The notes beneath the pieces were generated by a model that did not search any database, was not told the origin of the DNA, and was given only the letters and a program-made list of their open reading frames with translations. DNA of 64,000 nucleotides. It comes from a bacterium (GTDB lineage: Bacteria > Bacillota_I > Bacilli_A > RF39 > UBA660). Where the stretch lies: contig CAVIDW010000003.1 of the NCBI GenBank assembly GCA_963641945.1, positions 16,874 through 80,873 of the forward strand, given 5' to 3'. Both the position numbers and the translations under genes were made by a program. This document shows, piece after piece, positions 38,160 to 56,688 of the stretch (within the stretch, counting starts at the first letter, position 1; the number at the start of each line of letters is the position of its first letter).

Positions 38160-38182
38160 TAAAATATATGAAAGGAAAAAAT

Positions 38183-41030: not shown

Positions 41031-44000
41031 TTGACAAGATTAAATTATAAAAAAATTATATATCTTTTAATTACGTTAATTTTTATAATGGGTATTACTA
41101 TTGCTATTCCTTCATTAGCAAGATATAAAAATAGAGTAAACACAGAAATAAATGTATGGGATGGAACTGTAGCAACCAGTTTCAAAAGTGGAGAAGGCAC
41201 AGCTTCATCTCCATATATAATTTCAAATGGTAGTGAACTTGCTTATCTTTCTGATTCATTAAAGGCAAACAATTATGAAGGTATTTACTTTAAAATATCT
41301 AGTGATATTGTTTTAAATGATGGAAAATTTAATTATGAAGATAATAAATACATATATGAAAAAGACAATAATAAATATTATATAAAAGATGATAAATATT
41401 ATAGTGATATTGGATATACAAGCGAAGTTGGCTCATTAAATATTTTAAATTCACTAGAAGGATTTAAAGGTACATTTAATGGAGATTCCCATGTAATATC
41501 AGGATTATATATGTATAATGATGAATCAGCTTTATTTAAAAGTTTAAATGGAAAAGTAGAAAAATTATATATTAAAAATTCTCTTTTAACGGGAAATAAA
41601 GCTGCATCACTAGTAACAAATTCTACTTCATCAATTATAAATGAAATACTATTTGATGGATTTGTTATTAGTAATGCAGAAAGTAAGATAAAAAATGGAA
41701 CAATTTCTATTGATACAATAGAATTAAACAATAATTCAAAGACAATAACTATAAATATAGATGATAGTATAGAAAGTTATAATAATATTAGTTCAATTAC
41801 AGTAAATGGTGACTATAATATAGATACTAATAATGGTTCTGTTTTAATAAACGAAACACCTGTAACTGATAATCATTTTGAAATAACTACAACAAATAAA
41901 TATTTTACAATTACTGCTAGTTCTACAGAAATAACTAATATTGGATTTGATAATGTATCATATGAAATAACTTATAATGATAATATGGCTAGTGGAATAG
42001 CGTTAAACGTTACCAACACTGAACTTACAAATATTATCAATAAAGGAAAAATATATTCTAATAATGTTTCAAGTGGAATAGTTGGAATATTAAATAACTC
42101 AAATTTAACTAATGCTTATAATAATGGAGTAGTAAATACTTTAGGTGGAATAACTTCATATATAACAGGAAGTTCTAGTTTAATTAATGTATATAATACT
42201 TATGAAGAAACATCTTTGATTAATATAATAGAAAATTCAAATTTAAATATAATTGGCTCTTTTAATACATCAAATATTAAACCAATAAATAATAATATTA
42301 ATTCAGTATTAAGTATCCAAGACTCATATATAGTTGATAGTTCTTTAGACAGTACATCTAGTTTTACCATAAAAACGATAGAAGAATTAAAATCAGAAAA
42401 TATGAAGAATATATTCCATGAATATATTTCACTTGATGACTTAAATTCAAATATAGATAATGCTTGGATATATGAAAATGATAGTTATCCACTTTTATTT
42501 AATGATGATATAACTAATGGAATTGCAACTCTTCATATTAAAACATATTCATATGATAATTTTAGTAATGTTTTAGAGACATTTAATTATAAAGATAATG
42601 TTTCATTTGGTATAGAAGATAATGATGAATTAAATCCTAGTAGTAAATATTATTATATTCATAATAGTAATACGCCTCTATCAAAAACAGAACTTGAAAG
42701 CATTGAAAATTGGATAGAATATAATCAAATACAAACAATATCTGAAGAAGGAAATTATATAGTATATGTTAAACTAGTAAATAATAATAAAACATATTAT
42801 ATAAATTCAGATGTATTTGCTATTGATAAAACTATTCCAAGTGTTACATTAACATTAGATAATAATGTATGGAATTCATTAAATACCGAATTAAATACAA
42901 TAGATATAGATGGCGAAAAGGCATTTACAATTGATGCTGTTGACTTACTATCAGGAGTTAAATCAATAAAATATTATTTATCAAAAAATATATTAAGTGA
43001 AACAGAATTAAGTAGTGTAGAGTGGATTACTTATGATGAAAATGCAAAAATTAAAGATTTAGGTAAATATATCATATATGTAAAAGTAAGTGATAAAGTT
43101 TCAAATGAAACAATAATAAATAGTGATTATATAAATTATGATGGATATAAATTAACTATAACATCTGGTAATCATTTGAATAGTAATTTAAATATAACAG
43201 ATAAATCTAAATTAAAATTTAAATTTATATATGATGGAGAAAACAATGTATCTGGAACACATAGTTTAGTTTCAAACACACTATTGCCAAATGGAACAAT
43301 AATAACATTAAATGATCAAAATAAAATATATGAACATATAGTTGATAACATTTCAAACAATTATGGATATGAAACTAATAATTATGCTACATATAATTTT
43401 GTACTATTTAAAGAAAAAAATAAATATAATGATACTTACTATCAAGAAAGTAATAGCGTTGGAGTAGAAAATATAGAAGTTACAATAGACTTTAAAAATA
43501 CAAATTTAACAAATAATTTAGAAAATGTTACATTATCATTAAATATTGGCAATGATAGAAAAACACTACAAAGTAACATTAAAGAATTTAATGTATATAT
43601 AGATAGTGATGCTACACTTGAATTAACATCAACTTATGACAATAAAGAAATAGAATTTAATATAGATTCAACTATAAGTATAGAGTTATCTAGTGGTGTT
43701 AAATATGCTACCAAAGATTCACAATCAGTTTTAGATACAACATATGAAGATAAAATGCAGGGCATTGCAATTAAATTACTTGATAGCAATAATAATATTT
43801 TAGATAAAACATATTTAGAAAAATTAGTATTTACTATAGATGGAATAAATTATACACCAGATAATGATAATATAATAAGAATCCCATTTAGTGATACAAC
43901 ATCATTAACAACAAAATCATTATTAATTACAACATCAAAAAGTGATTTAAATCTAACTGAAGATAATATAAATATAGAAATATCTAATTATATCTCATAT

Positions 44001-44444
44001 GATGGAAAGTACTATAATGAATTAAATAACAGCATTATAATTCCAGTTGTAATAACAAATAATAATAAAACAACAACTGATTATGAATTTAGTATTACAG
44101 TAGCAGATGAATCAAGAATAATAAATAAGAAAGATGAAAGTACTACATTAGATTTTGATATTGTTACCAAAAACATAATAAATCCTACAATTAAAGTTTC
44201 ATTATATAAAAAAGATAAATTAACAGCATATGATCAAACATACAATATAGTTGACTTAAAAGAATATACAACATCCACATTACAATCTTTTACTACAAAT
44301 GTATATTTGACAGATATAAATGATACATTTACTTTAAATTTAATACCTAGTAAATTTGAAAGCAATGGATATAAATTTGTATTTGATTTATATAGTGATA
44401 ATGTAAAAATAAATACTATAGAAAAGTATTTTATTGCTAAGTGA
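41031..44444 (+). CDS. 1137-aa Asn/Ile-rich secreted giant protein with SipW-type signal, beta-helix-like N-terminal region and tandem Ig-like modules
   Basis: TTG start after an AGGAAG RBS. The signal reads ..AIPSLA/RYKNRVN. GEGTASSPYIISNGSELAYL..YFKISSDIVLNDG is typical of passenger/beta-helix adhesins. Two repeated ..EL.S(I/V)EW(I).Y..I...G.YI(V/I)YVK modules follow. Confidence 0.6.
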   Translation: MTRLNYKKIIYLLITLIFIMGITIAIPSLARYKNRVNTEINVWDGTVATSFKSGEGTASSPYIISNGSELAYLSDSLKANNYEGIYFKISSDIVLNDGKFNYEDNKYIYEKDNNKYYIKDDKYYSDIGYTSEVGSLNILNSLEGFKGTFNGDSHVISGLYMYNDESALFKSLNGKVEKLYIKNSLLTGNKAASLVTNSTSSIINEILFDGFVISNAESKIKNGTISIDTIELNNNSKTITINIDDSIESYNNISSITVNGDYNIDTNNGSVLINETPVTDNHFEITTTNKYFTITASSTEITNIGFDNVSYEITYNDNMASGIALNVTNTELTNIINKGKIYSNNVSSGIVGILNNSNLTNAYNNGVVNTLGGITSYITGSSSLINVYNTYEETSLINIIENSNLNIIGSFNTSNIKPINNNINSVLSIQDSYIVDSSLDSTSSFTIKTIEELKSENMKNIFHEYISLDDLNSNIDNAWIYENDSYPLLFNDDITNGIATLHIKTYSYDNFSNVLETFNYKDNVSFGIEDNDELNPSSKYYYIHNSNTPLSKTELESIENWIEYNQIQTISEEGNYIVYVKLVNNNKTYYINSDVFAIDKTIPSVTLTLDNNVWNSLNTELNTIDIDGEKAFTIDAVDLLSGVKSIKYYLSKNILSETELSSVEWITYDENAKIKDLGKYIIYVKVSDKVSNETIINSDYINYDGYKLTITSGNHLNSNLNITDKSKLKFKFIYDGENNVSGTHSLVSNTLLPNGTIITLNDQNKIYEHIVDNISNNYGYETNNYATYNFVLFKEKNKYNDTYYQESNSVGVENIEVTIDFKNTNLTNNLENVTLSLNIGNDRKTLQSNIKEFNVYIDSDATLELTSTYDNKEIEFNIDSTISIELSSGVKYATKDSQSVLDTTYEDKMQGIAIKLLDSNNNILDKTYLEKLVFTIDGINYTPDNDNIIRIPFSDTTSLTTKSLLITTSKSDLNLTEDNINIEISNYISYDGKYYNELNNSIIIPVVITNNNKTTTDYEFSITVADESRIINKKDESTTLDFDIVTKNIINPTIKVSLYKKDKLTAYDQTYNIVDLKEYTTSTLQSFTTNVYLTDINDTFTLNLIPSKFESNGYKFVFDLYSDNVKINTIEKYFIAK

Positions 44445-44456
44445 GGATGTGCGTAA

Positions 44457-44993
44457 ATGAAATATAAAATATTAAAATTATTAATAATTGCAGCACTAGC
44501 AGTATTTGGACTAGGTATTACATATTCAATATTTAGTTCAAATACACTAGCTTCTGGTGATCAAAAAATAGCAAAATTTATTTTTAATGCTGAAGAAGTA
44601 GATAAACTTTCTATCCCTATTACCGACTTAAAACCAGGATATACAAATGATTTTGATTTTTCAGTTAGTAATAGTAAGGACGAAAAAATAAGTGATGTAA
44701 CAATAGAATATCAAATGACTATAAAAACATTTCATTTGGTACCATTAAATATAGAATTATATAAAGTAGATGGAGAAAGTGAAACATTACTTATAACATG
44801 TGATGAAACATTTTCAAGAAATGAAGATAATGAACTTGTATGTAATCTTCCAATAGAAGAATTAGATTATCAAAAAGAAATCAAAAATAATTATAGATTG
44901 AAAATATCTTTCCCAGAAGAATATAATGATGAAGTATATTCTAATTTAGTAGATTATATTGATATTGAAATAAAAAGTTGGCAAAAGGTATAG
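44457..44993 (+). CDS. small TasA/camelysin-like secreted protein
   Basis: The signal reads ..GLGITYS/IFSSNT. LKPGYTNDFDFSVSN parallels TasA LKPGDKLTKDFQFEN. Confidence 0.6.
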   Translation: MKYKILKLLIIAALAVFGLGITYSIFSSNTLASGDQKIAKFIFNAEEVDKLSIPITDLKPGYTNDFDFSVSNSKDEKISDVTIEYQMTIKTFHLVPLNIELYKVDGESETLLITCDETFSRNEDNELVCNLPIEELDYQKEIKNNYRLKISFPEEYNDEVYSNLVDYIDIEIKSWQKV

Positions 44994-45004
44994 AAAGGAA
45001 TATT

Positions 45005-45880
45005 ATGAAAAAGAAAAAAAGTTTATTATTAATTCTAATCATATTAGCTAGTTTCTTATTCATAAGTTCTATTTCCTTAGCTAAATATGTATCAAATAAA
45101 GTATGGAATCAATATTTAAAATCACAAGGTTTTTACTTTGAAAGCGAAAATTTATCAACTACAGGTAAGACAACAGTAAATACTTTATGGAATGGTTCAC
45201 AAGTAGATTTAGTTATACAAAATAATAATTTGAATCAAATAACGGATACTGATATAGAATATGAAATGACTTGTAGTATAGAAGGTGAGCAAAATGATTC
45301 ATTAAAATGTTTATCAAATGGAAAAGATACATATATTGGTACATTATCTGCTACAAGTACATGTGTAAATGATTCTAATATTGATACAAGCACCTTAACT
45401 AAAACAGAATGTGAATTAGGAGGATATACTTGGCAAAATATGATTGCTAAGAATGACTTATATTTTGAAATAGTTAAAACAGATGAATCGTATGAATTAA
45501 GTGATGTAACAGTAAATGTAACCATTACGAGTAAAAAGCCATACAAAAAAACATTAAAAGGAACGTATATATTAAAGTATAATAATATTGAAGATGGAAT
45601 AGTAACATCATCTTATAAAAATTATACTGATTATAATAGATTAACTATAACAAATTCATATGATACAAATAAATGTATAAATATTTCATATGATGGGAAT
45701 ACAAAAACATTAGATGTTGATTCTAGTCTAGCTAAAGGTTCTAATCAAGAAGGCAATATTAATGAAATGGAATTTATTATAAAAGGTAAAACTAGTGAAA
45801 GTTTTATAGTATATGATAGTAGTGAAGAATTAACTGATAACTTTGTTATTAGTGTTATAGATGAATGTAAAGGTAGTTGA
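45005..45880 (+). CDS. secreted Cys-containing protein with SipW-type signal
   Basis: ATG at 45005 (MKKKKSLLL..). The signal reads ..SSISLA/KYVSNKV. Several Cys residues sit in the mature part. Confidence 0.55.
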   Translation: MKKKKSLLLILIILASFLFISSISLAKYVSNKVWNQYLKSQGFYFESENLSTTGKTTVNTLWNGSQVDLVIQNNNLNQITDTDIEYEMTCSIEGEQNDSLKCLSNGKDTYIGTLSATSTCVNDSNIDTSTLTKTECELGGYTWQNMIAKNDLYFEIVKTDESYELSDVTVNVTITSKKPYKKTLKGTYILKYNNIEDGIVTSSYKNYTDYNRLTITNSYDTNKCINISYDGNTKTLDVDSSLAKGSNQEGNINEMEFIIKGKTSESFIVYDSSEELTDNFVISVIDECKGS

Positions 45881-45922: not shown

Positions 45923-46447
45923 ATGAAAGTATTAAATGCAATAAAAAAATTTTTTCTAGGAGTTTTAACATTTGTGTTCTTTGTTTACGCGATTGCAATG
46001 ACATTTCTATTATTAAATTTTAATGATTACGGAGTTACAGAAGTTGGGGATACATCTGTAATTATAATTAAAGATAAAATATCTAATGAAAATTATAAAA
46101 AAGGTGACATTGTACTTGTAGAAAATAAGCAAATGAAGAATATACAAGTAGGAGATGAGTTATTTGCTTATAGAATTGATTCTAAAGGTGCTGCAAATAT
46201 TGAAATAGGAACAGTTGGTCAAGTACATTTAGATAGCGAAGCAGTTACTTTTGAAAATGGAGACTCTTACTCATATGAATTCTTAATCGGAGAAGGAACT
46301 AAAACTATTGGTAGTTTTGGAACATTCTTGGGACTAGTCGAATCTAAATGGGGATTCTTATTCACAGTACTAGTACCAAGTTTCATATTCTTTGTATATA
46401 ATCTATATGCATTAATCGTAGAAATAAAATACGGAGATGAAGAATAA
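45923..46447 (+). CDS. SipW-like bitopic membrane protein lacking recognisable catalytic motifs (possible pseudo-peptidase)
   Basis: SipW-like size and topology (N-terminal and C-terminal TM helices) and a KGDIVLV..VGDELFAY beta-core pattern. GSMxP and THR(I/V) boxes are absent. Confidence 0.4.
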   Translation: MKVLNAIKKFFLGVLTFVFFVYAIAMTFLLLNFNDYGVTEVGDTSVIIIKDKISNENYKKGDIVLVENKQMKNIQVGDELFAYRIDSKGAANIEIGTVGQVHLDSEAVTFENGDSYSYEFLIGEGTKTIGSFGTFLGLVESKWGFLFTVLVPSFIFFVYNLYALIVEIKYGDEE

Positions 46448-46448
46448 T

Positions 46449-46474
46449 AAATACGAATTAATTCGTATTTTTTT
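46449..46474 (+). terminator. intrinsic terminator
   Basis: Palindrome AAATACGAATT/AATTCGTATTT followed by a T run. Confidence 0.75.
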
Positions 46475-46566
46475 ATTTTAAAAAAACAGTTTATATGATA
46501 ATATAAATATATAAATATGTAATAAAGAAAATTTGCAAATAAAGTATTAAAGAAAGGAGGAAATAT

Positions 46567-46989
46567 ATGAAAAAATATTTAGCAATAACGTTTTTTGTAC
46601 TAACAATTGCAATTGTAACAAATTATGTCATAGTGAAAGCAGCAACATATCCATCGCCAGTAGGAACTTCATTCAGCAAAGAACTTGACAAAAACCAAGC
46701 ACAATACACATTTTGGAGAACAAAAACAAACTATTCAAGACAAACTTATGAAAACTTAGATGCTTTTACAAAATTAACAGATCCATGTCCTAATTGCAAA
46801 ATAGGTGCTAAACCATTTTTAGATAATGGTGATTTTCATTCTGGTATTGTAACAACATTAGGACATGTTGGAAAATTTAGTTCAACGTCTTCCACACCAG
46901 GAAATTACAGATTAAGCGTATGGAGAGTTGATGCAACATTGTTAACCACTTATCATTCTGCTCTTTGGACAATGAACAGTAATAATTAA
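46567..46989 (+). CDS. small secreted protein (140 aa) with CPNC motif
   Basis: Sec-type signal ..VIVKA/ATYPSP and AGGAGG RBS. I recognised no family motif. Confidence 0.6.
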   Translation: MKKYLAITFFVLTIAIVTNYVIVKAATYPSPVGTSFSKELDKNQAQYTFWRTKTNYSRQTYENLDAFTKLTDPCPNCKIGAKPFLDNGDFHSGIVTTLGHVGKFSSTSSTPGNYRLSVWRVDATLLTTYHSALWTMNSNN

Positions 46990-47039
46990 TAACAAAATAT
47001 AATGCAAATTTTCTTTATTTTAATTAATGGAGTGAAAAA

Positions 47040-47921
47040 ATGAAAAAAATAATATTTAATAATATACCTTTAATAATCAGTTTTTTATTTTTATTTTCAT
47101 TAGTTGTTTATGGACATTTGGAATATAAGAATGAGGTTCAAGGGATAAATGATACATATAATAAATATGTTACGGAATGTTCTCTATCCAATTTTGAAGA
47201 TGAAGAATATATAAGTTATTGCAATGATTTACTAGAAGACAAATATTATCCTAATTTTTTTTCAGAAGTTAGCTATATAATACATACAGTTAATTATATA
47301 TCAATGGTTTTATTTTTCACAGTAAGTATGCCAAGCTTATATTATATCTCAAAATATTTAAAAAATGGGATCATAAAAAACGAACTAACAAGAAAAACTT
47401 TTAAAAAATGTAAAATAAATTTACTTGCTATTTCATATAAAGGTGCATTAATATTACCTATAATTGCAATTGTAATGTTTGTTTTAAGTTATGCAAATAC
47501 AAAAACATTTGAAACATTTAACATGCAAGATATTATCTGGGAAAATTCGACTACAGCAAATCCATATTTATTTATAATAATGTATTTAATAAATATTACA
47601 ATCCATTCTATATTGTATTGTAATATATCATTATGCATAGTTAGAAAAAAACATAATTATTATGTTTCATCAATATTGTCTTACCTAACATTTATTGCAA
47701 TTGAATTGATACTAGAGCTAGGAATAAACACTATATTATTTGGAAAAATATTTAAAATAAACCTAGGTGTAATATTAAGTATATTTAATGTATTAGCATT
47801 TAATGACAGCTATGGAGTTTTGGCACCACTTGTAGTTCCAACTATTATGCTATGTATATCATATGTATTCTTATATTTTATGTATAAAGATAAAGAAAAA
47901 TTAATTATAGATTGTAATTAG
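47040..47921 (+). CDS. polytopic membrane protein, ABC-2-type permease-like
   Basis: TM1, then an extracytoplasmic loop, then about five further TM helices. It lies adjacent to the ABC ATPase. Confidence 0.5.
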   Translation: MKKIIFNNIPLIISFLFLFSLVVYGHLEYKNEVQGINDTYNKYVTECSLSNFEDEEYISYCNDLLEDKYYPNFFSEVSYIIHTVNYISMVLFFTVSMPSLYYISKYLKNGIIKNELTRKTFKKCKINLLAISYKGALILPIIAIVMFVLSYANTKTFETFNMQDIIWENSTTANPYLFIIMYLINITIHSILYCNISLCIVRKKHNYYVSSILSYLTFIAIELILELGINTILFGKIFKINLGVILSIFNVLAFNDSYGVLAPLVVPTIMLCISYVFLYFMYKDKEKLIIDCN

Positions 47922-47929
47922 GAGTTAAA

Positions 47930-48574
47930 ATGAAAATTGAATTTAAAAATGTTAATAAAAATTTTAAAAAAGTTGAGATATTGAAACAGATTAATTTAAA
48001 ATTCGAAACTGGAAATGTATATGGAATCTATGGTAGAAATGGCAGTGGTAAGAGTGTATTTTTGAAGATGATTGCAGGGTTTATGCTTCCGACGAGCGGA
48101 GAAATACTTTTTGATGGTGAAAATTTAAATTTTAAAAATGAATTTCCGAAAGATTTGAGAGCATTAATAGAAAATCCATCATTTTTCCCAGATTTAACTG
48201 GATTTGAAAATTTAAGATTATTAGCTAAAATACAAAATAGGATAGGAGATAACGAAATATTAGCAGCATTAGATATAGTTAACTTAACAGATGAAAAAGA
48301 TAAAAAATACAGTAAATACTCTTTAGGAATGAAACAAAAATTAGGAATAGCTCAAGCAATAATGGAAAATCCTAAAATATTAATATTAGATGAGCCATTC
48401 AATGGAATAGAGGAAAAAACAGTCAAAAAAATAATTGATTATCTAAATGAAATTAAAAAAGATAGAATAATAATAATAAGTACACATATTATAGAAGATC
48501 TGCATAAATTAACAGAAAAAATATATTATTTTGATAATAAGGAAGTTTATGAAAATATTAAAAAACAGAGTTGA
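47930..48574 (+). CDS. ABC transporter ATP-binding protein
   Basis: GRNGSGKSV Walker A, YSLGMKQKLGIAQAI signature and ILILDEPFNG Walker B. Confidence 0.85.
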   Translation: MKIEFKNVNKNFKKVEILKQINLKFETGNVYGIYGRNGSGKSVFLKMIAGFMLPTSGEILFDGENLNFKNEFPKDLRALIENPSFFPDLTGFENLRLLAKIQNRIGDNEILAALDIVNLTDEKDKKYSKYSLGMKQKLGIAQAIMENPKILILDEPFNGIEEKTVKKIIDYLNEIKKDRIIIISTHIIEDLHKLTEKIYYFDNKEVYENIKKQS

Positions 48575-49286
48575 ACAAATTCTAACCGTCAAGGATCATG
48601 TCTTAATATATTTGATTATTGTATTAGGGGTGTGTATACCGACATTTTCAGGACTAGCTAGCGAAAATTTTTGGGTAAGATTATATAGTATTAACACGAC
48701 TCCAATTTATTTAACAATGTTTTATTTATCTACAGGGTTATTCACTATGTATTCAATAAAGAACTATTGCTTAGAATACAATATACTGATAAGAAATACA
48801 AATTATAAGCAAATGATAGATGATAGTTTAAAAGTAATAATATTTGGGACAATATTTTTAAATATTATAGGTTTACTTTTAACTATAGCTGGAGCAGTAA
48901 TTTTCTGTTATAACGATTTTTCGGTAATTTCTCATCCGATATATAATATATCATTTATAAGTTACATGTTATTTTTTGCCTTAAGAGGGTTGACTATCTC
49001 CTGCATAATAAATGTAACGTTATATTTGTTATATATGCTATTTAAGGACTACGCAAATATAATTTTGATTGCAATTTGTTCAAGCTTTACAGCATTACCA
49101 TCTAAATCAGTAAAAATATTGCATTTTTATAACATGCCATTGTTGTTTCATAACTATTATTTTAATATAGAATATTCAACATTTTATTTAGAAATATTAT
49201 GTTCAACTATCGAGACGTTACTATTAATAGGAATATGCAAATTATTATATTATTTTGCGATAAAGAAGAAAAGAGACATTATATGA
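48549..49286 (+). CDS. polytopic membrane protein (putative ABC-2 permease component)
   Basis: ATG at 48549 follows an AAGGAAG RBS and overlaps the ATPase 3' end. About six TM helices. Confidence 0.5.
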   Translation: MKILKNRVEQILTVKDHVLIYLIIVLGVCIPTFSGLASENFWVRLYSINTTPIYLTMFYLSTGLFTMYSIKNYCLEYNILIRNTNYKQMIDDSLKVIIFGTIFLNIIGLLLTIAGAVIFCYNDFSVISHPIYNISFISYMLFFALRGLTISCIINVTLYLLYMLFKDYANIILIAICSSFTALPSKSVKILHFYNMPLLFHNYYFNIEYSTFYLEILCSTIETLLLIGICKLLYYFAIKKKRDII

Positions 49287-49912
49287 AAATACAATCTAAA
49301 ATATTATTAGAAAGATTCAAAAAGAATATTTTGTATATTACAATATACTTTATAAGCTTAATATTTGGAGTAATACTGTTTTATTTAAGAAACAAACAAA
49401 TAGAATTTAATATAGATGAATTCTTAGTACTTATTAATTTTCCAAAATTCTCAAATTTAAGTTACTTATATGAATTAATTAAAATATATGAAATTGGATT
49501 ATTAGTGTATTTAGTATATGACTATTATACTTATGATTTAAATTATTCATTAGATAATATTATGATAAGAGAAAGTGTAAATAAATGGTATTTAAATAAA
49601 ATAATAATATTCAGTATATTTATAACTTTATTTAAAATATTTGAAGTATCAATATTATATTTAATTCATAGTAGTGAAGTATCATTTGATATTAATTTTT
49701 ATATCTATTCAATCATATTTGATATATTTATTTTATTAATCATCACAACATTATATAACTATAGAAGAAGCATTTTAAACTATATATTTTTATCAATAAT
49801 ATTAATTTATATATATTTAAGATTTAATGTAATAATAGTTCTTATTTTGTCTATAATTATCGCTATTTTTAATTATAAAACATTAAATTTCACCAAGAAT
49901 TTTACTGAATAA
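49283..49912 (+). CDS. polytopic membrane protein (putative ABC-2 permease component)
   Basis: ATG at 49283 forms an ATGA overlap with the upstream stop. About six TM helices. Confidence 0.5.
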   Translation: MKIQSKILLERFKKNILYITIYFISLIFGVILFYLRNKQIEFNIDEFLVLINFPKFSNLSYLYELIKIYEIGLLVYLVYDYYTYDLNYSLDNIMIRESVNKWYLNKIIIFSIFITLFKIFEVSILYLIHSSEVSFDINFYIYSIIFDIFILLIITTLYNYRRSILNYIFLSIILIYIYLRFNVIIVLILSIIIAIFNYKTLNFTKNFTE

Positions 49913-49916
49913 AATG

Positions 49917-49938
49917 AACTAGACTTTAGTCTAGTTTT
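49917..49938 (+). terminator. hairpin terminator after the ABC module
   Basis: AACTAGAC-TTTA-GTCTAGTT followed by TT. Confidence 0.55.
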
Positions 49939-49960
49939 AATATAAATTTTTCTATTATTA

Positions 49961-49989
49961 TTGCATGAATTTTGTTAATATGGTAGAAT
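49961..49989 (+). promoter_or_regulatory. promoter with extended -10 for the 50021-56688 operon
   Basis: TTGCAT (49961-49966), a 17-nt spacer and TGgTAGAAT (49981-49989). Confidence 0.6.
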
Positions 49990-50020
49990 TAATAAAGTAA
50001 AAAGATAGTAGGGTAAGAGT

Positions 50021-52144
50021 ATGAAAAAAATGAATAAAGTTGTTGAAAAAGTAGCAAATGTATCATTAAATATACTAATCGGAATATTTGCAATCATATT
50101 GCTTATATTTATATATAAAGGATTTCAAGTTAAAATTTTAAAGAATGATTTTAATTTCTTTGGATATACAATGTTTGAAGTTCAAACAGGAAGTATGAAA
50201 AGTTATATTAATGCTGGAGATTGGGTAGTAGTAAAACTTACAAAGGATGTAGATATTAATGATGTCATTACATTTAAGCAAGATGGAAATAATATTACAC
50301 ATAGGGTAATTGAAATATATAATGGAACCTATATTACCAAAGGGGATGCTAATAATTCGAAAGATGACCCAATAGATCAAAGTCAAATAATTGGAAAGGT
50401 AGTGAAAGTTCTTAGCGGATTTGGAATACTGCGAAAAACAATATTTAATCCAGCAGTAATAATTGCTTTAATAATAACTTTGTTATTATTTAATTTAACT
50501 TTTAAGAATGATGTGGAAAGTATGAAAAAGAAAAAACAAATAAGAATTATAGTAAATAAGATAATAAATCTCTTTAAAAATATTAAGAAAGATGAATTTA
50601 GTGATTTGGATAAATTTGATGAATCTAAGAAAGAAAGAATAGAAGAAGAAAAAATCATCAAGCAAGAAATACTTGATGAGGGTGACATTCAAAAAGAGCC
50701 AAAGAAAGAAGAACTAAGTAAAACATCAATGTTTAGAGTTGTTAGTGTTAGAAAAGAAGGACATAAACCTAAAGAAGAATCAAAAATAGAAGAAAAAATT
50801 GAAGCAGATGAAGAAATAATTGAATCAGAAAAAACTCCTGAGCAAATTGAAGAAGAATTAAGTAAAACTTCTATGTTTAGAATAATTAAAGCTGATACAA
50901 GTGATATAGACAAAAAAATAAAAAAGATAATTAAAAAAGAAAAAAAGGAAAATAAAGATAATAACGTCTATACAGTAACTCTAGAAGCAGAAAAAGTAGT
51001 TAAAAAACTTGATAAAAATATGGGAAAAAACGAAAGAAGTGAAAAGAGTGAATCTATAAATTCAAATGATTTAAAAATCAAAACATATAATACAAAAGCT
51101 AAGACAATAATAGAAAAAGCAATTAAAGTAAAAAAACTAGAAATAAATCAAGTAATCGATGTTATATTAGAAGGTCAAAAATCATATGTAATTAAATCAA
51201 GTTTTAGAACAGACTTTATAGATGCATATATTACTAGTAAATATTATTTGGCAGAAAATTCAAATAGTATTGGTGATGTAAAAGAATCTATCAGTGCTTT
51301 AAGTAAAAAACTAACAAAGAAGAACATTAGAGATGAAAAACAAAAGTTAATTATTAAAACATATGAAGATTTAATGCTTTTATATTCAAATATTGATAAA
51401 TACAATAAAGATGAAGAAAATAGAATAACTTTTTATCAAAAGACATTAAGAAAATATAGTAATTGGGATATAGAATATATTAATTATTTAGTTTATAGAA
51501 TTATTGAAATACAAAATAAATGTTTAGATGAAATGGAAGAAAGTTATAAAAAACTAGAAACAGATACATTTGAAATAACATTTAATAAAATATCAAATAA
51601 TAAAGATTTATATTCAGCAGTATTAAATCATAATATATCATTTAGTAGTGTATATAGCGATTATATAGTTGATAAAACATATAATGAAGGAATCGTATCA
51701 GAAGATAAAGTAGTAGTTCTTATAACATTATTATCAAGTAGAATTGCAAAAGATATAACGAACTATGATTATAATAAAAAATATGTAGTTTATATGCCAA
51801 GCGGATTATATGAAAAAGAAAAGAAAATGGCTGGATTATTAAAATTAATTGAAGATGAATATGCTAAAAATCATATCTATATATTATTAGATGCTAATAC
51901 GTTGATATTGAACAAGAAAATAACAACGAATCTTAAAAAACAAGGATATAATTTTGCAGTTGTATTAAATGATGAAAGCAAAATTAATGAAAAAAACATA
52001 GGTGCATTGTATTTAGCAGATTATATATTTGTAAGTAAAGATATTAAAAACATATCAAATATAATTGGAGAAGTACCTAATGAACTTTTAGAAAAAATTG
52101 TAAAAGAAAATATAAAAAAATTGGGTGATTTTGGAGGCGAATAA
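50021..52144 (+). CDS. SipW-type (ER-type S26B) signal peptidase fused to a ~540-aa cytoplasmic extension
   Basis: The N-terminal ~160 aa comprise a TM helix, QTGSMKS (Ser box), ITHRVIE (His box), TKGDANNSKDDP (Asp box) and a second TM helix. A K/E-rich linker with duplicated EELSKTSMFR(V/I) follows, then a globular domain of about 330 aa of unknown family. Confidence 0.7.
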   Translation: MKKMNKVVEKVANVSLNILIGIFAIILLIFIYKGFQVKILKNDFNFFGYTMFEVQTGSMKSYINAGDWVVVKLTKDVDINDVITFKQDGNNITHRVIEIYNGTYITKGDANNSKDDPIDQSQIIGKVVKVLSGFGILRKTIFNPAVIIALIITLLLFNLTFKNDVESMKKKKQIRIIVNKIINLFKNIKKDEFSDLDKFDESKKERIEEEKIIKQEILDEGDIQKEPKKEELSKTSMFRVVSVRKEGHKPKEESKIEEKIEADEEIIESEKTPEQIEEELSKTSMFRIIKADTSDIDKKIKKIIKKEKKENKDNNVYTVTLEAEKVVKKLDKNMGKNERSEKSESINSNDLKIKTYNTKAKTIIEKAIKVKKLEINQVIDVILEGQKSYVIKSSFRTDFIDAYITSKYYLAENSNSIGDVKESISALSKKLTKKNIRDEKQKLIIKTYEDLMLLYSNIDKYNKDEENRITFYQKTLRKYSNWDIEYINYLVYRIIEIQNKCLDEMEESYKKLETDTFEITFNKISNNKDLYSAVLNHNISFSSVYSDYIVDKTYNEGIVSEDKVVVLITLLSSRIAKDITNYDYNKKYVVYMPSGLYEKEKKMAGLLKLIEDEYAKNHIYILLDANTLILNKKITTNLKKQGYNFAVVLNDESKINEKNIGALYLADYIFVSKDIKNISNIIGEVPNELLEKIVKENIKKLGDFGGE

Positions 52145-52146
52145 TT

Positions 52147-53709
52147 ATGAATACATTCTTACGATTTTTTTACGAATTTATATCAATATTTTTTGATGGA
52201 GTAGAAAAAATTGTAAAAGGCTTTATAAATGGCTTTATGCAAATGTTTAATTATGGAGATTATAAACAAATAATAAGCAATTATAAAGGAAGTTTTAGTG
52301 GAATAGAATGGGTATTTGTAGGATTAGGTGTGGCATTTTTTGTTCTCCTAGTTGGAGCAATTTTAGTACTTATATTTATGGGTATTAGAAAAATATTTAG
52401 ACTTAGAAAAGAGAAATTAAATCAAGATGAATTATTAGATGAAATTGGGGAACTAAATGATAAAGTTAAGCAATTGATGAAAGAAAAAGATGAATTAATG
52501 GCCATGAAAGTTTCTCAATTAGGATTAAATCCAAAAGATGAGCCAACAGAAGAACAAAAAGAAGAAAATAAAAATGCTGATGGTTATACTGAAGAAGAAC
52601 AAAATACAGAAGACCTTGATGAAGCTGGAAATGTTCGTTTTCCTAAACTTGTTAGAATCGATCAAGAATATAAGAATTATAAAATTAAAAATTATAATAA
52701 CAACTTCTCTTTAGAAGAATTAATAGATAACTTTAGATGTTTTGCTGCAAGTCAACTTCATTTATATTATGAAGCACATTTGTTAAGAGCATTCATTGGA
52801 GGTCTTGCTTGTGGTAAATTAATTATCTTACAAGGTATTTCTGGTACAGGTAAAACATCTTTAGCATATGCTTGGGGTAAATTTGTTAAAAATGATTCAT
52901 GCGTAGCATCAGTTCAACCATCATGGAGAGATAAAACTGAATTACTTGGATACTTTAATGAATTTACTAAAAAGTTTAACGAGTCAAACGTTTTAGAAGA
53001 GTTATACTTAGCCGGATATGATGATAATGTTCATACAATAATACTTGATGAAATGAATATAGCCAGAGTTGAATATTATTTTGCAGAAATGCTATCTATA
53101 TTAGAATTACCTCAAAGAAGTGAATGGCAGATTGAACTTGTATCTACAATATGGCCAGATGATCCAAAAAGGTTGGATAAAGGAAAACTTCATTTACCTG
53201 GAAACTTATGGTATATTGGAACAATCAATAATGATGACTCAACATTTATGGTAACAGATAAAGTATACGATAGAGCAATGCCTATTGATATAAATAAAAA
53301 GATAGATCCATTTGAATGTAGAGAACAAGAAGCAGTTGCTATAAACTCAAGTTATTTAGAAAGTTTATTTAAACAAGCATTCGAAGATCATAAATTATCA
53401 CAAAAATCAATTAAAATGGTTGAAGAAATTGATAATTATGTTATCGCTCATTTTAGAGTTGCATTTGGTAATCGTATTATGAAACAATTAAGAGACTTTA
53501 CAGCAGTTTATGTAGCTAGTGGTGGAGATGAAGTAGAAGCAATAGACTATTTTCTAGCACAAAAAGTATTAAGAAAATTTGACCAATTAAATATTGCTCA
53601 AATAAGAGATGAAATAGATGGTTTTATTAAATATCTTGATGCATCAACTGGTAAAGGCAAAATGAAAGAATGTATTGCATTTTTAGAAAGATTAAAGAAA
53701 TCAGTTTAG
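52147..53709 (+). CDS. membrane-anchored McrB-family AAA+ GTPase homologue
   Basis: TM helix (WVFVGLGVAFFVLLVGAILVLIFMGI) followed by RKIFRLRKEK, then a coiled coil. The core is McrB-like: ILQGISGTGKTS, VQPSWRDKTELLGYF, IILDEMNIARVEYYFAEMLSILE, NLWYIGTINNDDS (NxxD), YDRAMPIDI. Confidence 0.75.
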   Translation: MNTFLRFFYEFISIFFDGVEKIVKGFINGFMQMFNYGDYKQIISNYKGSFSGIEWVFVGLGVAFFVLLVGAILVLIFMGIRKIFRLRKEKLNQDELLDEIGELNDKVKQLMKEKDELMAMKVSQLGLNPKDEPTEEQKEENKNADGYTEEEQNTEDLDEAGNVRFPKLVRIDQEYKNYKIKNYNNNFSLEELIDNFRCFAASQLHLYYEAHLLRAFIGGLACGKLIILQGISGTGKTSLAYAWGKFVKNDSCVASVQPSWRDKTELLGYFNEFTKKFNESNVLEELYLAGYDDNVHTIILDEMNIARVEYYFAEMLSILELPQRSEWQIELVSTIWPDDPKRLDKGKLHLPGNLWYIGTINNDDSTFMVTDKVYDRAMPIDINKKIDPFECREQEAVAINSSYLESLFKQAFEDHKLSQKSIKMVEEIDNYVIAHFRVAFGNRIMKQLRDFTAVYVASGGDEVEAIDYFLAQKVLRKFDQLNIAQIRDEIDGFIKYLDASTGKGKMKECIAFLERLKKSV

Positions 53710-53720
53710 GAGTGAATTAA

Positions 53721-54842
53721 ATGGCAAAGACAAGTATAGAAATTGACAAAGAAATAAAAAAACAATGTAATCTTTTTCTAAAAAATACAGAATCAAATAT
53801 GCATTATCTTGCAGATTTAGATAATACATTAAGTTCTACAAAATGGTTAGAAATAATGGAAGAAACATTTCCATATTTAGATACATATATTAGAGCTCCA
53901 AAAGTAGCATTAATTACTGAAACAGAAACACAACCCATTGAAAAAGCAAAAAAAATTGGAGTAGAAAGTGTTAAAGATTTAGCAAAACATAGTAATTATA
54001 TTGAAAATGTAGTTAGTGATAAAGATATTAAACCATCAAAAATACTTGTCTTACTTCGTGAAGAAACATACAATACATACGAGAATAGATTTATTTATAC
54101 ATTGGTTCATGAAACTTTAAGATTTATAATTTTAATGGAAGAAAAACTAAAAAAATTAGAATCAAAAGATCAAAAACAATTAGAGTATACATCTAATACA
54201 AATAATGGAAAAGATAAAATTAAAATATGCTTAAGAATCAGTGCTGTTGAAATAGATAAAGGATCAAAAAATAGTGATTTTGAAGCACAAGTTAGTAATA
54301 TCAAAAAAAGATTAAAATTACTAAAGGAATATATAACTTTATGGCAAAGATGTGAAATGATGGAATCACTTAAAAAAGCACATGTTCCATTTGTAACATC
54401 TCCAATTAAAAAGACTAATTTAATATTAAAAAATCCAAACTTTAAAGAAGCAACAAAACTATGGAATTTTTTAATGAATTACTTAGATAATGAATCAAAT
54501 AAAAATAAACTATATGATACAAATGGTAATCAATTCTTAAGAAATATATTAGATGAATCATTTTTGATGGATTATTATGTATTAGATGCAATCTCAAATA
54601 TAAGAAAGAATCAAAGAGATAAGCTTACACAATATGCTGTATTAATGATTAGTGAACAAGTTAAAAAATCAATGGAAATATTACTATATAATGGAATAAA
54701 GGTATCTGAAGAAAAACTATTACAAATGGTAAATATAGAAATAAATAATGATAAAAGTAAAATGGCACTAGGAAGTAGTGATATAAAGAAAAAATTTGAA
54801 AAAGAAATGAATGAATACCTGGCAAAGGTTCAAAATTTATAG
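53721..54842 (+). CDS. McrC-like (N-terminal domain only) partner protein with no recognisable PD-(D/E)xK nuclease motif
   Basis: It occupies the McrC position 12 nt after the McrB-like gene. ETYNTYENRFIYTLVHETLRFI resembles the McrC EDTLANRIIKSTL region, and LKNPNFKEATKLWNFLMNY is also present. I see no D..(D/E)xK motif equivalent to IIDAKYY. Confidence 0.5.
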   Translation: MAKTSIEIDKEIKKQCNLFLKNTESNMHYLADLDNTLSSTKWLEIMEETFPYLDTYIRAPKVALITETETQPIEKAKKIGVESVKDLAKHSNYIENVVSDKDIKPSKILVLLREETYNTYENRFIYTLVHETLRFIILMEEKLKKLESKDQKQLEYTSNTNNGKDKIKICLRISAVEIDKGSKNSDFEAQVSNIKKRLKLLKEYITLWQRCEMMESLKKAHVPFVTSPIKKTNLILKNPNFKEATKLWNFLMNYLDNESNKNKLYDTNGNQFLRNILDESFLMDYYVLDAISNIRKNQRDKLTQYAVLMISEQVKKSMEILLYNGIKVSEEKLLQMVNIEINNDKSKMALGSSDIKKKFEKEMNEYLAKVQNL

Positions 54843-54851
54843 GAGCAAATA

Positions 54852-55424
54852 ATGAAAAAAATAAAAAATAATAAAGTACTAAAAATTATACTTAAAGTTA
54901 TTAAAGCTTGTATAATTATAACATTAATAGCATTTATATTAGTTGTTTTTTTACAAAGATTCAGTAATAATAAATTATCATTATTTAACTATAGAATCTT
55001 TGCAGTAGCAACTGGTTCTATGCAACCAAAATATAATATTGGTGATGTATTAATATCAAAAGATGTAGATCCAAGTAAATTAAAAGTTGGAGATAATATT
55101 AGTTATTTAGGAACTAAATCAAATTTTAAAGGAAAAGTTATAACGCACCAAATAGTTAAAATTGAAACAGATGAAAATGGTAAATTATTATTCTATACAA
55201 AAGGTATAGCAAATCTAGTAGAAGATCCAGTAGTTGAAGAAGGTCAAGTGTATGGAAAAGTTATTTATAAAACAATTTTATTATCATGGTTATATAAATT
55301 TGTTAGTACAAGTACTGGGTTTGGATTAATAATAGTTATTCCAATAATAATAATTATTGGATATGAAATACTTGCAACATTACTAGAAAAAAAGGAAGAA
55401 GAAATTAACTCAAAAAGAAAATAG
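54852..55424 (+). CDS. SipW-type signal peptidase homologue with altered Asp box
   Basis: N- and C-terminal TM helices, ATGSMQPKY (Ser box) and ITHQIVK (His box). TKGIANLVEDP stands where SipW has KGDNN. Confidence 0.7.
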   Translation: MKKIKNNKVLKIILKVIKACIIITLIAFILVVFLQRFSNNKLSLFNYRIFAVATGSMQPKYNIGDVLISKDVDPSKLKVGDNISYLGTKSNFKGKVITHQIVKIETDENGKLLFYTKGIANLVEDPVVEEGQVYGKVIYKTILLSWLYKFVSTSTGFGLIIVIPIIIIIGYEILATLLEKKEEEINSKRK

Positions 55425-55440
55425 AAAAGGAGGCACAAAA

Positions 55441-56688
55441 ATGAAAAAAAGACATAAATTATATATAAAACTTAATTTAGTTTCATTAATTTTCATTGTT
55501 GTGTCTTTAATTTTTACAACACTTGCATGGTTTGCATATAGTGGTTTATCTTCCTTAGATACAGAAATCGGTGTAAAAGCATGGTATATAGAATTAACTA
55601 AGAATGGCGAAGCAGTTGCTAATGATATAGTTATTTCAATTCCAACAATTTATCCAGGAATGGATACAATAACTGAAAAGATAAATATTGAAAATTTTGG
55701 TGATTCCGTTGCACAGGTAAAATATGAAATTTTATCAGCAAGAATACTTGACACTAAATATGATACAGAAAATGATAAAAGTATTGTTTCAGAAGATTTA
55801 GAAACATCATTATCTCATGATTATCCATTTCATATAAATATAAGTTTGAGTGATTATGTTGTTGATTCAAATGGTGGAACAGCAACATTTAAAGTAAGCG
55901 CATCTTGGCCATTAGATGGTGGAAATGACAGTGCTGATAGTGAATGGGGAACGAAAGCATATGAATTCTCTCAAGCAGAAAAAAATAAACAAGCAACTGA
56001 TTCAAATTATGCTATAGACTCACCAATTCAAGTTGTAATAAAAGTAAGTGCTGAGCAATATGTTGATAGTGATACATCAAGTTCAAGAGATTATGCATAT
56101 GGTAATACAATATTATATAATGTAGTAGCAGATGATTTTTGTTCTAAAGTTAGTGACACATGTATAAGTACAACAGTAATTGATGAAAACAATAAAATAG
56201 GCGATGAAACAATTACTGTAATACCAAATATATTAACAAAATTTACAGAGGCAACTTATGATAATTATAATAATACATTAAATAGTATTACTTCAAACTG
56301 GAATGTAGAATATAGAGCTTTAACAGCAGATGATGTATTAAAAATTATTTCAAGAGATATAGAATCATCAAATATGATTAGTTCTTCATTATCTAATATA
56401 ATAATTGGAAAAATGAATTCATCAGAATTAATAAATCAAACATTGAACAATGCAGTTTTACTAGATGGACATTTTGAATTTATTAATGATAATTTTAAAT
56501 TTTTATATAATTCTTCAAGTACATGTTATTGGACAATGACAGAATATAATACAAGTAAAGGTTACGCTTTCTCAAAGATAGATAGTAGTAAATCTAAATT
56601 ATATGGAGAAAATAAAACCACTTCTTGTCAAGTATTACCAGTAATAATAATAACAAAAAAAGAAATTATAAAGGAAGAAAATGGTTAA
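55441..56688 (+). CDS. TasA-like secreted protein with SipW-cognate-type signal and extended C-terminal domain
   Basis: The signal reads ..IFTTLA/WFAYSGLS. IYPGMDTITEKINIENFGDSVAQVKYEI and IQVVIKVSAEQY are TasA-like strands. Confidence 0.6.
   Translation: MKKRHKLYIKLNLVSLIFIVVSLIFTTLAWFAYSGLSSLDTEIGVKAWYIELTKNGEAVANDIVISIPTIYPGMDTITEKINIENFGDSVAQVKYEILSARILDTKYDTENDKSIVSEDLETSLSHDYPFHINISLSDYVVDSNGGTATFKVSASWPLDGGNDSADSEWGTKAYEFSQAEKNKQATDSNYAIDSPIQVVIKVSAEQYVDSDTSSSRDYAYGNTILYNVVADDFCSKVSDTCISTTVIDENNKIGDETITVIPNILTKFTEATYDNYNNTLNSITSNWNVEYRALTADDVLKIISRDIESSNMISSSLSNIIIGKMNSSELINQTLNNAVLLDGHFEFINDNFKFLYNSSSTCYWTMTEYNTSKGYAFSKIDSSKSKLYGENKTTSCQVLPVIIITKKEIIKEENG

Follow-up and report, generated by a model that had tools for sequence, protein, structure and literature searches.

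McrBC is the textbook GTP-driven restriction motor, and the closest description to the locus analysed here is that of a clade of McrB homologs for which Bell et al. (eLife 2024; PMC11090510) coined the name CoCoPALM, giving it one paragraph and deferring its analysis. In CoCoPALM, the GTPase is fused to an FtsB-like transmembrane (TM) and coiled-coil domain and is linked to proteins of the signal peptidase family, while the McrC homolog is "usually" also equipped with a coiled coil (PMC11090510). A major non-canonical branch of McrB homologs is marked by NxD, with E or another D as the usual next residue, and much of the coiled-coil part of this branch has McrC-type partners without a nuclease (Bell et al., PMC11090510). 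The subject of this study is an McrB-like nucleoside triphosphatase (NTPase) gene that starts at position 52147 of the window, a stretch of 64,000 nucleotides (nt) of contig CAVIDW010000003.1 (assembly GCA_963641945.1). The gene fits the CoCoPALM description point by point and is therefore regarded as a member of this already named, uncharacterised class; none of the results contradicts its membership. The protein is most likely a motor or switch for surface-fibre assembly rather than a restriction enzyme. Taken as a whole, the statement that this CoCoPALM-type McrB homolog is a motor or switch in the processing or assembly of surface fibres is made with moderate confidence; the architecture and the classification are more certain than the statement as a whole, the function less so.

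The points of agreement with CoCoPALM are an NxD-type McrB-like NTPase carrying a TM and coiled-coil-like module, an adjacent McrC homolog with DUF2357 and helical extensions only, and a link to signal peptidases, as two SipW genes scoring above the TIGR02228 cutoff flank the pair and are kept in 78 of 80 loci. Both the architecture and the signal-peptidase link, which a first-pass annotation of the window had implied to be novel, had been named before (PMC11090510). What is new here is the full anatomy of the gene cluster, the predicted topology, the nuclease loss across homologs and the evidence for a lineage trait. Beyond the published description, the locus displays a conserved N-terminal segment of 53 amino acids (aa), a zipper predicted to be cytoplasmic, near-ubiquity in one gut Bacilli lineage, and a cluster of approximately 11 genes with SipW peptidases and at least seven T-x-A-x-F proteins. 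CoCoPALM has a name but no experimental or detailed computational study, and a parts list together with a topology makes the class testable. A literature search found no follow-up paper on CoCoPALM, no paper linking SipW with McrB (the lone apparent match was an E. coli strain genotype) and none mentioning PDC-M26, and the supplementary files of the eLife paper, as searched, contained no CoCoPALM entries.

Compared with canonical McrBC of E. coli and T. gammatolerans (PMC7680126, PMC6624300), homology of the AAA+ core extends from Walker A as far as the Arg-finger helix, the partner gene follows immediately 3' and is translationally coupled, and a ring with an inserted activator is probably shared. 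In contrast to these enzymes, a membrane anchor takes the place of the DNA-binding N-domain, the consensus loop reads N-x-D-(D/E)ST instead of MNxxDRS, a Ser occupies the position of the guanine-stacking aromatic, one Arg of RR(R) is kept, and the partner has neither a PD-(D/E)xK nuclease nor similarity to E. coli McrC. Judged by this predicted composition, the pair is not a restriction enzyme. The CoCoNuT systems (CnuB/CnuC; PMC11090510) resemble the locus in belonging to the NxD branch, in the coiled coil placed N-terminal to the NTPase and in McrC homologs that often lack an active nuclease, and the closest TM-less relatives of the present protein, 700-870 aa long, look alike. CoCoNuT differs in its linked HEPN or other nuclease, which is part of its definition and of which none was detected in the cluster genes here, and the coiled coil of the present protein is short and membrane-anchored. 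The tapA-sipW-tasA operons and the archaeal bundling pili (PMC9674648, PMC9245690) share the placement of a SipW or archaeal-type peptidase beside T-x-A-x-F secreted proteins, but have no cytoplasmic NTPase, and the secreted proteins found here gave no significant match to TasA or any family. Finally, a preprint on PcdA of S. aureus (PMC10602043) describes an McrB-family NTPase that was co-opted from restriction and acts in selection of the division plane, a likeness in so far as an McrB-family NTPase has a cellular role outside defence.

The McrB-like reading frame is not a chance open reading frame (ORF), since more than 8000 database proteins match it, the top 120 of them over 100% of the length and with 66-93% identity. 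Nearly all of the top matches are unnamed or "hypothetical protein" entries from metagenome-assembled genomes (MAGs) of Bacilli. The window has a G+C content of approximately 25%, with nearly all long ORFs on the plus strand, and a Shine-Dalgarno sequence (GGAGG) lies 9 nt 5' of the start, within the tail of the preceding gene; a promoter and terminator scan of the window was uninformative at 25% GC (63 sites against 61 expected). Loci were compared using the best 80 from other genomes, obtained by scanning one genome per species, while conservation among distant relatives was assessed on 150 representatives clustered at 50% identity. For the N-terminal region, 76 close homologs were used for conservation and 77 for counting charges, and 39 diverse relatives served for the family profile of the PDB search and for the NCBIfam and Pfam scans.

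The assignment to the McrB family is based on the NCBIfam, PDB and hhalign matches and not on Pfam AAA_5, which scored 16.8 bits for the protein alone, under the gathering score of 22. Alignment of the family profile to E. coli K-12 McrB with hhalign gave a probability of 96.9% (E 1.6e-10, 166 columns) and paired residues 205-379 with McrB residues 176-351, from before Walker A to the Arg-finger helix, with corresponding positions for the H2-insert and the consensus loop. NCBIfam McrB (PRK11331) matched the protein at E 1.7e-5 over residues 215-413 and was matched by 23 of the 39 relatives (AAA_5 by 24). In the PDB, the only significant matches were E. coli McrB (6hz4, 6ut6, 7vsr), at E 1e-4 for the single sequence and E 2.7e-5 for the profile. 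The strongest match in a defence library was PADLOC PDC-M26A (E 3.7e-37). A tblastn search against plasmids matched, at about 1e-20, AAA+ domains in genes whose annotation names an EVE or a DUF3578 domain, both of which occur on McrB homologs. An AlphaFold2 (AF2) model of the protein reached a mean predicted local distance difference test (pLDDT) score of 71.9 and a predicted template modelling score of 0.62, with pLDDT below 50 at residues 251-279 and 307-326; Foldseek placed it among AAA+ proteins of the H2-insert clade (MCM, RavA, BchI, BrxL), with McrB (6ut6_D) at rank 7. In view of the low quality of the model in the insert loops, this ranking was taken as support at the level of the clade only. 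Judged by the alignments, the protein is a genuine McrB-family AAA+ protein of the N-x-D branch, as had been proposed in the first-pass annotation, and the profile comparison suggested there as a check returned the expected McrB match together with AAA_5 matches among the relatives.

The AAA+ core is the most conserved region of the protein, with a mean column identity of 0.84. All four strings quoted in the earlier annotation were found in the order given there, namely GISGTGKTS, VQPSWRDKTELLGYF (residues 256-270), LDEMNIARVEYYFAEMLSILE (residues 300-320) and INNDDS, and HMMER aligned them to E. coli McrB. The Walker motifs are present with key residues invariant or nearly invariant in distant relatives; in Walker B this applies to D301 and N304, which are invariant, and to E302, which is nearly so. 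Among the 150 representatives, the signature loop reads G-T-[AI]-N-x-D-[DE]-S-T-[F], with N361, D363, S365 and T366 invariant, position 362 free and position 364 either D or E. The loop is one residue shorter than MNxxDRS, and its R is replaced. In canonical McrB, the MNxxDRS loop stands in for sensor I; it positions the catalytic water and confers no guanine specificity (PMC7680126). The "NxxD GTP-specificity box" of the earlier annotation therefore needs correcting on two counts, as the motif is N-x-D-(D/E) and the loop is a catalytic rather than a specificity element. GTP specificity has been located in the N-linker and in the aromatic residue right after the P-loop, and homologs without these features are promiscuous (preprint 10.64898/2026.08.31.748284); the guanine-stacking aromatic is Trp223 in the T. 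gammatolerans protein and Phe209 in the E. coli protein (PMC7680126; 10.64898/2026.08.31.748284). In the present protein, this position after GKT is occupied by Ser238, which is nearly invariant in the family, and because of this replacement a preference for GTP must be treated as an assumption; the protein is accordingly called an NTPase throughout. On the helix behind the loop, where McrB has an adjacent, trans-acting Arg pair (sensor II and Arg finger), YDRAM aligns to LRRRF of E. coli McrB, and of the pair only R376 is retained, which is invariant.

The 160 residues that precede the AAA+ module consist of a conserved segment, a TM helix, a coiled-coil-like helix and a linker (Table 1), in agreement with the earlier proposal that the DNA-binding N-domain has been replaced. 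The single strong TM helix of that proposal was recovered, but it does not form the N-terminus, as it lies at residues ~55-80 behind the conserved 53 aa. This segment has a hydrophobic moment of approximately 1.9 and, among the 76 sequences, the invariant residues M1, F4, R6, F8, Y9, E10, S13, F15, G18, G25, G29, Y39, Y46 and F50. Many relatives carry a genuine second TM helix at the same position; residues 1-53 are predicted either to lie outside the cell or to form a marginal first TM helix, and the AAA+ domain would be inside either way. Following the TM helix, the basic stretch noted in the first-pass annotation (RKIFRLRKEK) leads into the zipper-like helix, and the AF2 model shows a single helix over residues 52-124. 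This part is coiled-coil-like as had been claimed, although shorter, with approximately 44 aa and about four canonical heptads instead of ~60 aa, after which comes a disordered acidic linker of ~35 aa (AF2 pLDDT below 50 over residues 121-160). The heptad core (L96, I100, L103, V107, L110) is invariant and L117 is highly conserved, while the MKVSxLGL motif at its end (residues 120-127) is invariant save for Q124.

The number of K and R in the 15 residues after the TM helix averages 5.2, compared to 1.3 before it, and the bias is found in 77 of 77 close homologs as well as in 14 of 15 distant single-TM relatives. By the positive-inside rule, the zipper and the AAA+ module are therefore predicted to reside in the cytoplasm. 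This agrees with the cytoplasmic part of the membrane-tethered ring envisaged earlier; the ring itself is reasonable and would follow from homology. The zipper of FtsB/FtsL is located outside the membrane, in the periplasm, so the predicted orientation here is the opposite one. The homology to FtsB described for CoCoPALM was not reproduced with HMMER for this anchor, as only 2 of the 39 members gave weak FtsL matches at E ~0.009; the present protein itself matched FtsL_Actino weakly (E 0.0087).

The gene that follows begins 11 nt past the stop codon of the McrB-like gene, with a Shine-Dalgarno sequence (AGGAG) 8 nt upstream. Its product matches Pfam DUF2357 (E 6.6e-10), as do 35 of 35 aligned homologs, and DUF2357 is the N-terminal domain of McrC (Bell et al., PMC11090510). 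None of the 35 homologs matched a nuclease family, and a conserved D..(D/E)xK motif is absent from the family alignment, in which F19, W42, R58, Y120-E121-N122, P228, T232, N233, K237 and N238 are invariant and R123 and R197 nearly so. The AF2 model of the partner (pLDDT 66.5) contains beta-hairpins, a low-confidence region at residues 64-115 and, with moderate confidence, long helices over residues 184-371, and no alpha/beta nuclease fold was seen in it. The label "McrC-like" is given because of the DUF2357 match and the gene adjacency, with no match to E. coli McrC or to a PDB chain. On this domain content, the protein is an McrC-type partner predicted to lack a nuclease. It had already been treated as the McrC-type partner in the earlier annotation, which the DUF2357 domain bears out, while the lack of a nuclease and the cluster of surface-protein genes around the pair had been missed.

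Table 1. Coordinates of the McrB-like gene, its segments and motifs, and the genes of the surrounding cluster (positions in the window; AF2, AlphaFold2 model).
Feature	Coordinates	Strand	Length or residues	Remarks
McrB-like AAA+ NTPase	52147-53709	+	520 aa	ATG start, stop included; matches to NCBIfam McrB, E. coli McrB (hhalign) and PADLOC PDC-M26A
Amphipathic, aromatic-rich N-terminal segment	52147-52305	+	residues 1-53	Conserved; AF2 helices 3-33 and 36-49
TM helix	52309-52386	+	residues ~55-80	Kyte-Doolittle 19-mer up to 3.08; in all homologs
Basic stretch RKIFRLRKEK, then leucine-zipper-like helix	52387-52518	+	residues 81-124	Continuous with the TM helix
Acidic disordered linker	52519-52626	+	residues 125-160	Length-variable; gap fraction 0.32 in homologs
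Pre-AAA segment, AAA+ core and helical lid	52627-53706	+	residues 161-520	H2-insert clade (Foldseek)
Walker A GISGTGKTS	52834-52860	+	residues 230-238	G230, G233, G235 and K236 invariant in distant relatives
Walker B LDEMN	53044-53058	+	residues 300-304	Aligned to IDEIN of E. coli McrB
Consensus loop N-N-D-D-S-T	53227-53244	+	residues 361-366	N-x-D-(D/E) variant; INNDDS = 360-365
McrC-type partner, predicted to lack a nuclease	53721-54842	+	373 aa	DUF2357 N-domain and all-helical C-terminal half
SipW-long	50021-52144	+	707 aa	SipW-type signal peptidase, K/E-rich linker and ~340-aa cytoplasmic domain
SipW-type signal peptidase I	54852-55424	+	190 aa	TIGR02228 82.8 bits (cutoff 51.85)
Third SipW-like protein, divergent	45923-46447	+	174 aa	Clusters with the SipW genes (C0)
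p415 secreted protein	55441-56688	+	415 aa	Signal anchor ends T-L-A-W-F (...TTLAWFAY); A29, W30 and F31 invariant
Surface protein	36623-38107	+	494 aa	T-F-A-W-F anchor; C-terminal Bact_surface_Ig-like (Pfam E 1e-9)
Surface protein, paralog of the 494-aa protein	38168-39781	+	537 aa	T-F-A-W-F anchor
Secreted protein	39897-41012	+	371 aa	T-Y-A-W-F anchor; cluster C7
Secreted protein	41031-44444	+	1137 aa	[ST]-x-[AS]-x-[FY] signal anchor; cluster C10
Secreted protein	44457-44993	+	178 aa	T-Y-S-I-F anchor; cluster C8
Secreted protein	44978-45880	+	300 aa	[ST]-x-[AS]-x-[FY] signal anchor; cluster C5

The pair is embedded in a cluster of approximately 11 genes, which include two clear SipW-type signal peptidases, a divergent third one and at least seven secreted proteins. 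The peptidase encoded directly upstream of the NTPase (SipW-long) scored 66.8 bits against TIGR02228, above the cutoff of 51.85, while the match of the 174-aa SipW-like protein was weak (E 0.0047). From SipW-long to p415 (50021-56688), the genes form a tight operon with gaps of 2-16 nt, and the order SipW-long, McrB-like, DUF2357, SipW, p415 is kept in 74-78 of the 80 loci, with the DUF2357 gene next to the McrB-like gene in 77 and the 190-aa SipW gene in its position in 78. Clustering of all ORFs in the 80 loci demonstrated that the conserved block extends upstream of SipW-long, and in the closest relative at NCBI (L081, 80% identity) the eleven cluster genes are contiguous. The NTPase is the most conserved gene, with 57-73% identity compared to 25-57% for the others. 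Family scans detected no nuclease or other defence effector in any cluster gene.

The C-terminal domain of SipW-long (51119-52141) occurs in distant relatives as a separate, TM-less protein of ~330 aa encoded directly upstream of the NTPase gene (e.g. L047:6990-7985 and L062:7012-7992). Its C-terminal part (GYKIAIVMDDTFE...FKYVIVNK) resembles a degenerate EAL (cyclic di-GMP phosphodiesterase) domain; as 1 of 25 members gave a weak Pfam EAL match (E 0.035) and there was no PDB match, this reading was set aside as a lead only. The K/E-rich linker of the same protein contains a near-repeat, EELSKTSMFR(V/I), at residues ~230 and ~278.

The secreted proteins of the cluster share signal anchors of the T-x-A-x-F type (Table 1), which is the motif of the TasA signal peptide of B. 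subtilis (...GGGTWA|AFND); mature TasA starts at A28 in PDB 8aur, directly after ...GGGTWA. Homologs of p415 were found in 74 of the 80 loci, and its N-terminal half (~200 aa) is common to homologs of ~200 aa in distant relatives. Scans of 33 members gave no NCBIfam or Pfam match for p415, and a PDB profile search gave none either; a likeness of p415 to TasA, considered in view of the shared motif, was not supported by these searches or by hhalign. The C7, C10, C8 and C5 genes occur in the same order in 26-56 loci and are contiguous with the McrB-like gene in L081, where a 536-aa homolog of the surface proteins heads the cluster. The 494-, 537- and 371-aa proteins are paralogs with a ...[ST]T[FY]AWF anchor and similar N-terminal domains, and are candidate fibre or adhesin subunits of the cluster. 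With its listed TTG start, the 300-aa gene would share 16 nt with the tail of the 178-aa gene, and an internal Met (MKKKKS..., residue 10) is the likelier start.

Relatives of the McrB-like gene were found in at least 476 species-representative genomes. The best 80 genomes are mostly titled uncultured Bacilli, Mollicutes, Tenericutes, "Clostridium sp. CAG:567/628" or Candidatus Coprovivens, while some carry other MAG labels (e.g. Muribaculaceae, Clostridia), apparently through mislabelling by the submitters. A search of 2.9 million viral contigs returned one distant match, restricted to the AAA+ part (31% identity), phage records returned two partial matches and none of full length, and of 283 matches on plasmids none spanned the N-terminal anchor. 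The cluster thus behaves like a chromosomal trait conserved within a single gut lineage and not like mobile defence. Since it is conserved in hundreds of species and the NTPase is its slowest-evolving gene, the cluster is probably important for building the surface or for attachment.

Other NxD-type McrB-like NTPases with four, two or no TM helices occur in other contexts. A form with four TM helices (e.g. L084:2723-4693) precedes a gene for a 478-aa protein and has no SipW in its vicinity, and a form with two (L086:5475-12585) consists of tandem pairs of an AAA_5 gene and a ~670-aa gene beside a giant ORF of more than 3000 aa; of the two ~670-aa products, one matches DUF2357 weakly and the other does not. 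Given these relatives, membrane anchoring of NxD-type NTPases appears to be widespread and much more diverse than its single-TM version, with the SipW context as one of its forms. A single-TM relative with 37% identity (P0139, L085:5777-7279) adjoins DUF859 and Phage_holin_1 genes on a short metagenomic contig, a context that a prophage-borne version of the pair would fit.

A possible working of the system can be outlined by analogy with McrBC. The NTPase would form a hexameric ring on the cytoplasmic face of the membrane, as McrB does, into which the DUF2357 domain of the partner would insert and stimulate nucleotide hydrolysis. The TM helix and the N-terminal segment might then transmit the nucleotide state outward, and the cytoplasmic domain of SipW-long may take part in this transmission. 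The SipW active sites, expected outside the cell, would process the anchored preproteins, and hydrolysis would be coupled to this processing or to the release or polymerisation of pilus-like fibre subunits, in a manner comparable to mechanotransmission by FtsEX or to pilus assembly ATPases. A bolder version is possible but doubtful, namely that the ring and its partner drive, from the cytoplasm, an apparatus for surface-filament assembly that is powered by NTP and has so far gone unrecognised; such an apparatus may be built from SipW-type peptidases and T-x-A-x-F preproteins, be vertically inherited and be near-universal in the lineage.

Several observations weigh against a role in fibre assembly or make it less secure. 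The partner has no detectable similarity to E. coli McrC by hhalign, no PDB chain was found for it (the profile search gave nothing, and Foldseek with the AF2 model gave no match below E 0.28), and its model is mediocre. No experiment exists for any NxD-type McrB homolog (PMC11090510), and hydrolysis, the hexamer and the interaction between NTPase and DUF2357 domain are inferred from homology. The words "fibre" and "pilus" depend on the signal-anchor motif and the SipW neighbours, because TasA-likeness was not demonstrated; the alignment of p415 with TasA by hhalign had a probability of 2.3% and paired only a PG..N.G motif. Known fibres of the TasA type polymerise without an NTPase, which leaves the need for a motor unexplained. 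Furthermore, the cluster has different chromosomal flanks from one genome to another, and the PDC-M26A match implies that close AAA+ relatives are counted as candidate defence genes.

The last two points lead to the main rival, a membrane-located anti-phage or anti-plasmid defence derived from Type IV restriction or from a CoCoNuT-like system, in which the McrB/McrC-like module would sense infection and answer with membrane damage, receptor shedding or an unseen nuclease. The McrB homology and the PADLOC match speak for such a function, as do the related AAA+ domains on many plasmids, the phage-like genes, including a holin, beside the 37%-identical single-TM relative, and the variable chromosomal position of the cluster. 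Defence nevertheless appears improbable, as neither the partner nor any other cluster gene contains a detectable nuclease or known effector, the gene order among surface-protein and signal-peptidase genes is fixed in 74-78 of 80 species, and viral contigs, phages and plasmids virtually lack the full-length protein. In addition, the NTPase occurs in at least 476 species of one lineage with its identity kept at 57-73%, unlike the patchy, fast-evolving genes of defence systems.

Two further readings were considered, both of them very remote. The protein could be a positioning factor for cell division or the envelope, with the TM helix and zipper as a module of the FtsB/FtsL/DivIC type; Bell et al. 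describe the N-terminal module as a homolog of FtsB (PMC11090510), and the PcdA preprint offers a precedent for co-option of an McrB-family protein (PMC10602043). The FtsL_Actino match points the same way, but weak FtsL matches were confined to 2 of the 39 members, and the surrounding genes encode signal peptidases and secreted proteins instead of division proteins. Moreover, the zipper is predicted to be cytoplasmic while that of FtsB/FtsL is outside, and PcdA reportedly lacks a membrane anchor, an McrC-type partner and neighbouring signal peptidases, whereas the DUF2357 partner is kept here in 77 of 80 loci. Equally improbable is a generic AAA+ protein of the H2-insert clade (MoxR/RavA-, MCM- or chelatase-like) whose McrB-like motifs are convergent or over-read. 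The subthreshold AAA_5 score, the MCM and RavA chains at the top of the Foldseek list, with McrB at rank 7, and the alteration of the MNxxDRS loop, the post-P-loop aromatic and the Arg pair would be explained in this way, yet sequence searches returned McrB and no other AAA+ family as significant, and the alignment begins ahead of Walker A, extends to the Arg-finger helix and matches the insert and loop positions. The fold ranking is itself weakened by the poor modelling of the insert loops, the DUF2357 gene again follows in 77 of 80 loci, and a described branch of McrB is recognised by its N-x-D-(D/E) loop (PMC11090510).

If the surface-fibre reading is correct, a branch of McrB that has lost DNA binding and nuclease and is wired into the membrane next to signal peptidases would demonstrate the reuse of a defence motor for surface biogenesis. 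In the bolder form, this would mean that a restriction motor has been exapted completely as a membrane mechanotransducer, and that a new kind of pilus biogenesis exists in addition to the systems of the chaperone-usher, sortase, type IV and TasA types. The hosts are abundant, uncultured gut Bacilli with reduced genomes.

Some smaller features of the locus concern its borders and one interruption. In 61 of the 80 loci, a minus-strand gene of ~210 aa lies ~30-400 nt past the p415 homolog (e.g. L002:12591-13223), sometimes with a second copy upstream; it has no family match, and in the window, which does not contain it, lon follows the cluster. Between the third SipW-like gene and SipW-long, the window carries an insert of ~3.5 kb (46448-50020), which holds four ABC-transporter or membrane-protein genes (47040-49912) and an apparent small coding region upstream of them. 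Nearly all other loci lack counterparts of these four genes, the ABC ATPase alone having weak matches (~28-30%) elsewhere in three loci, and in L081 the genes that flank the insertion site are only ~105 nt apart.

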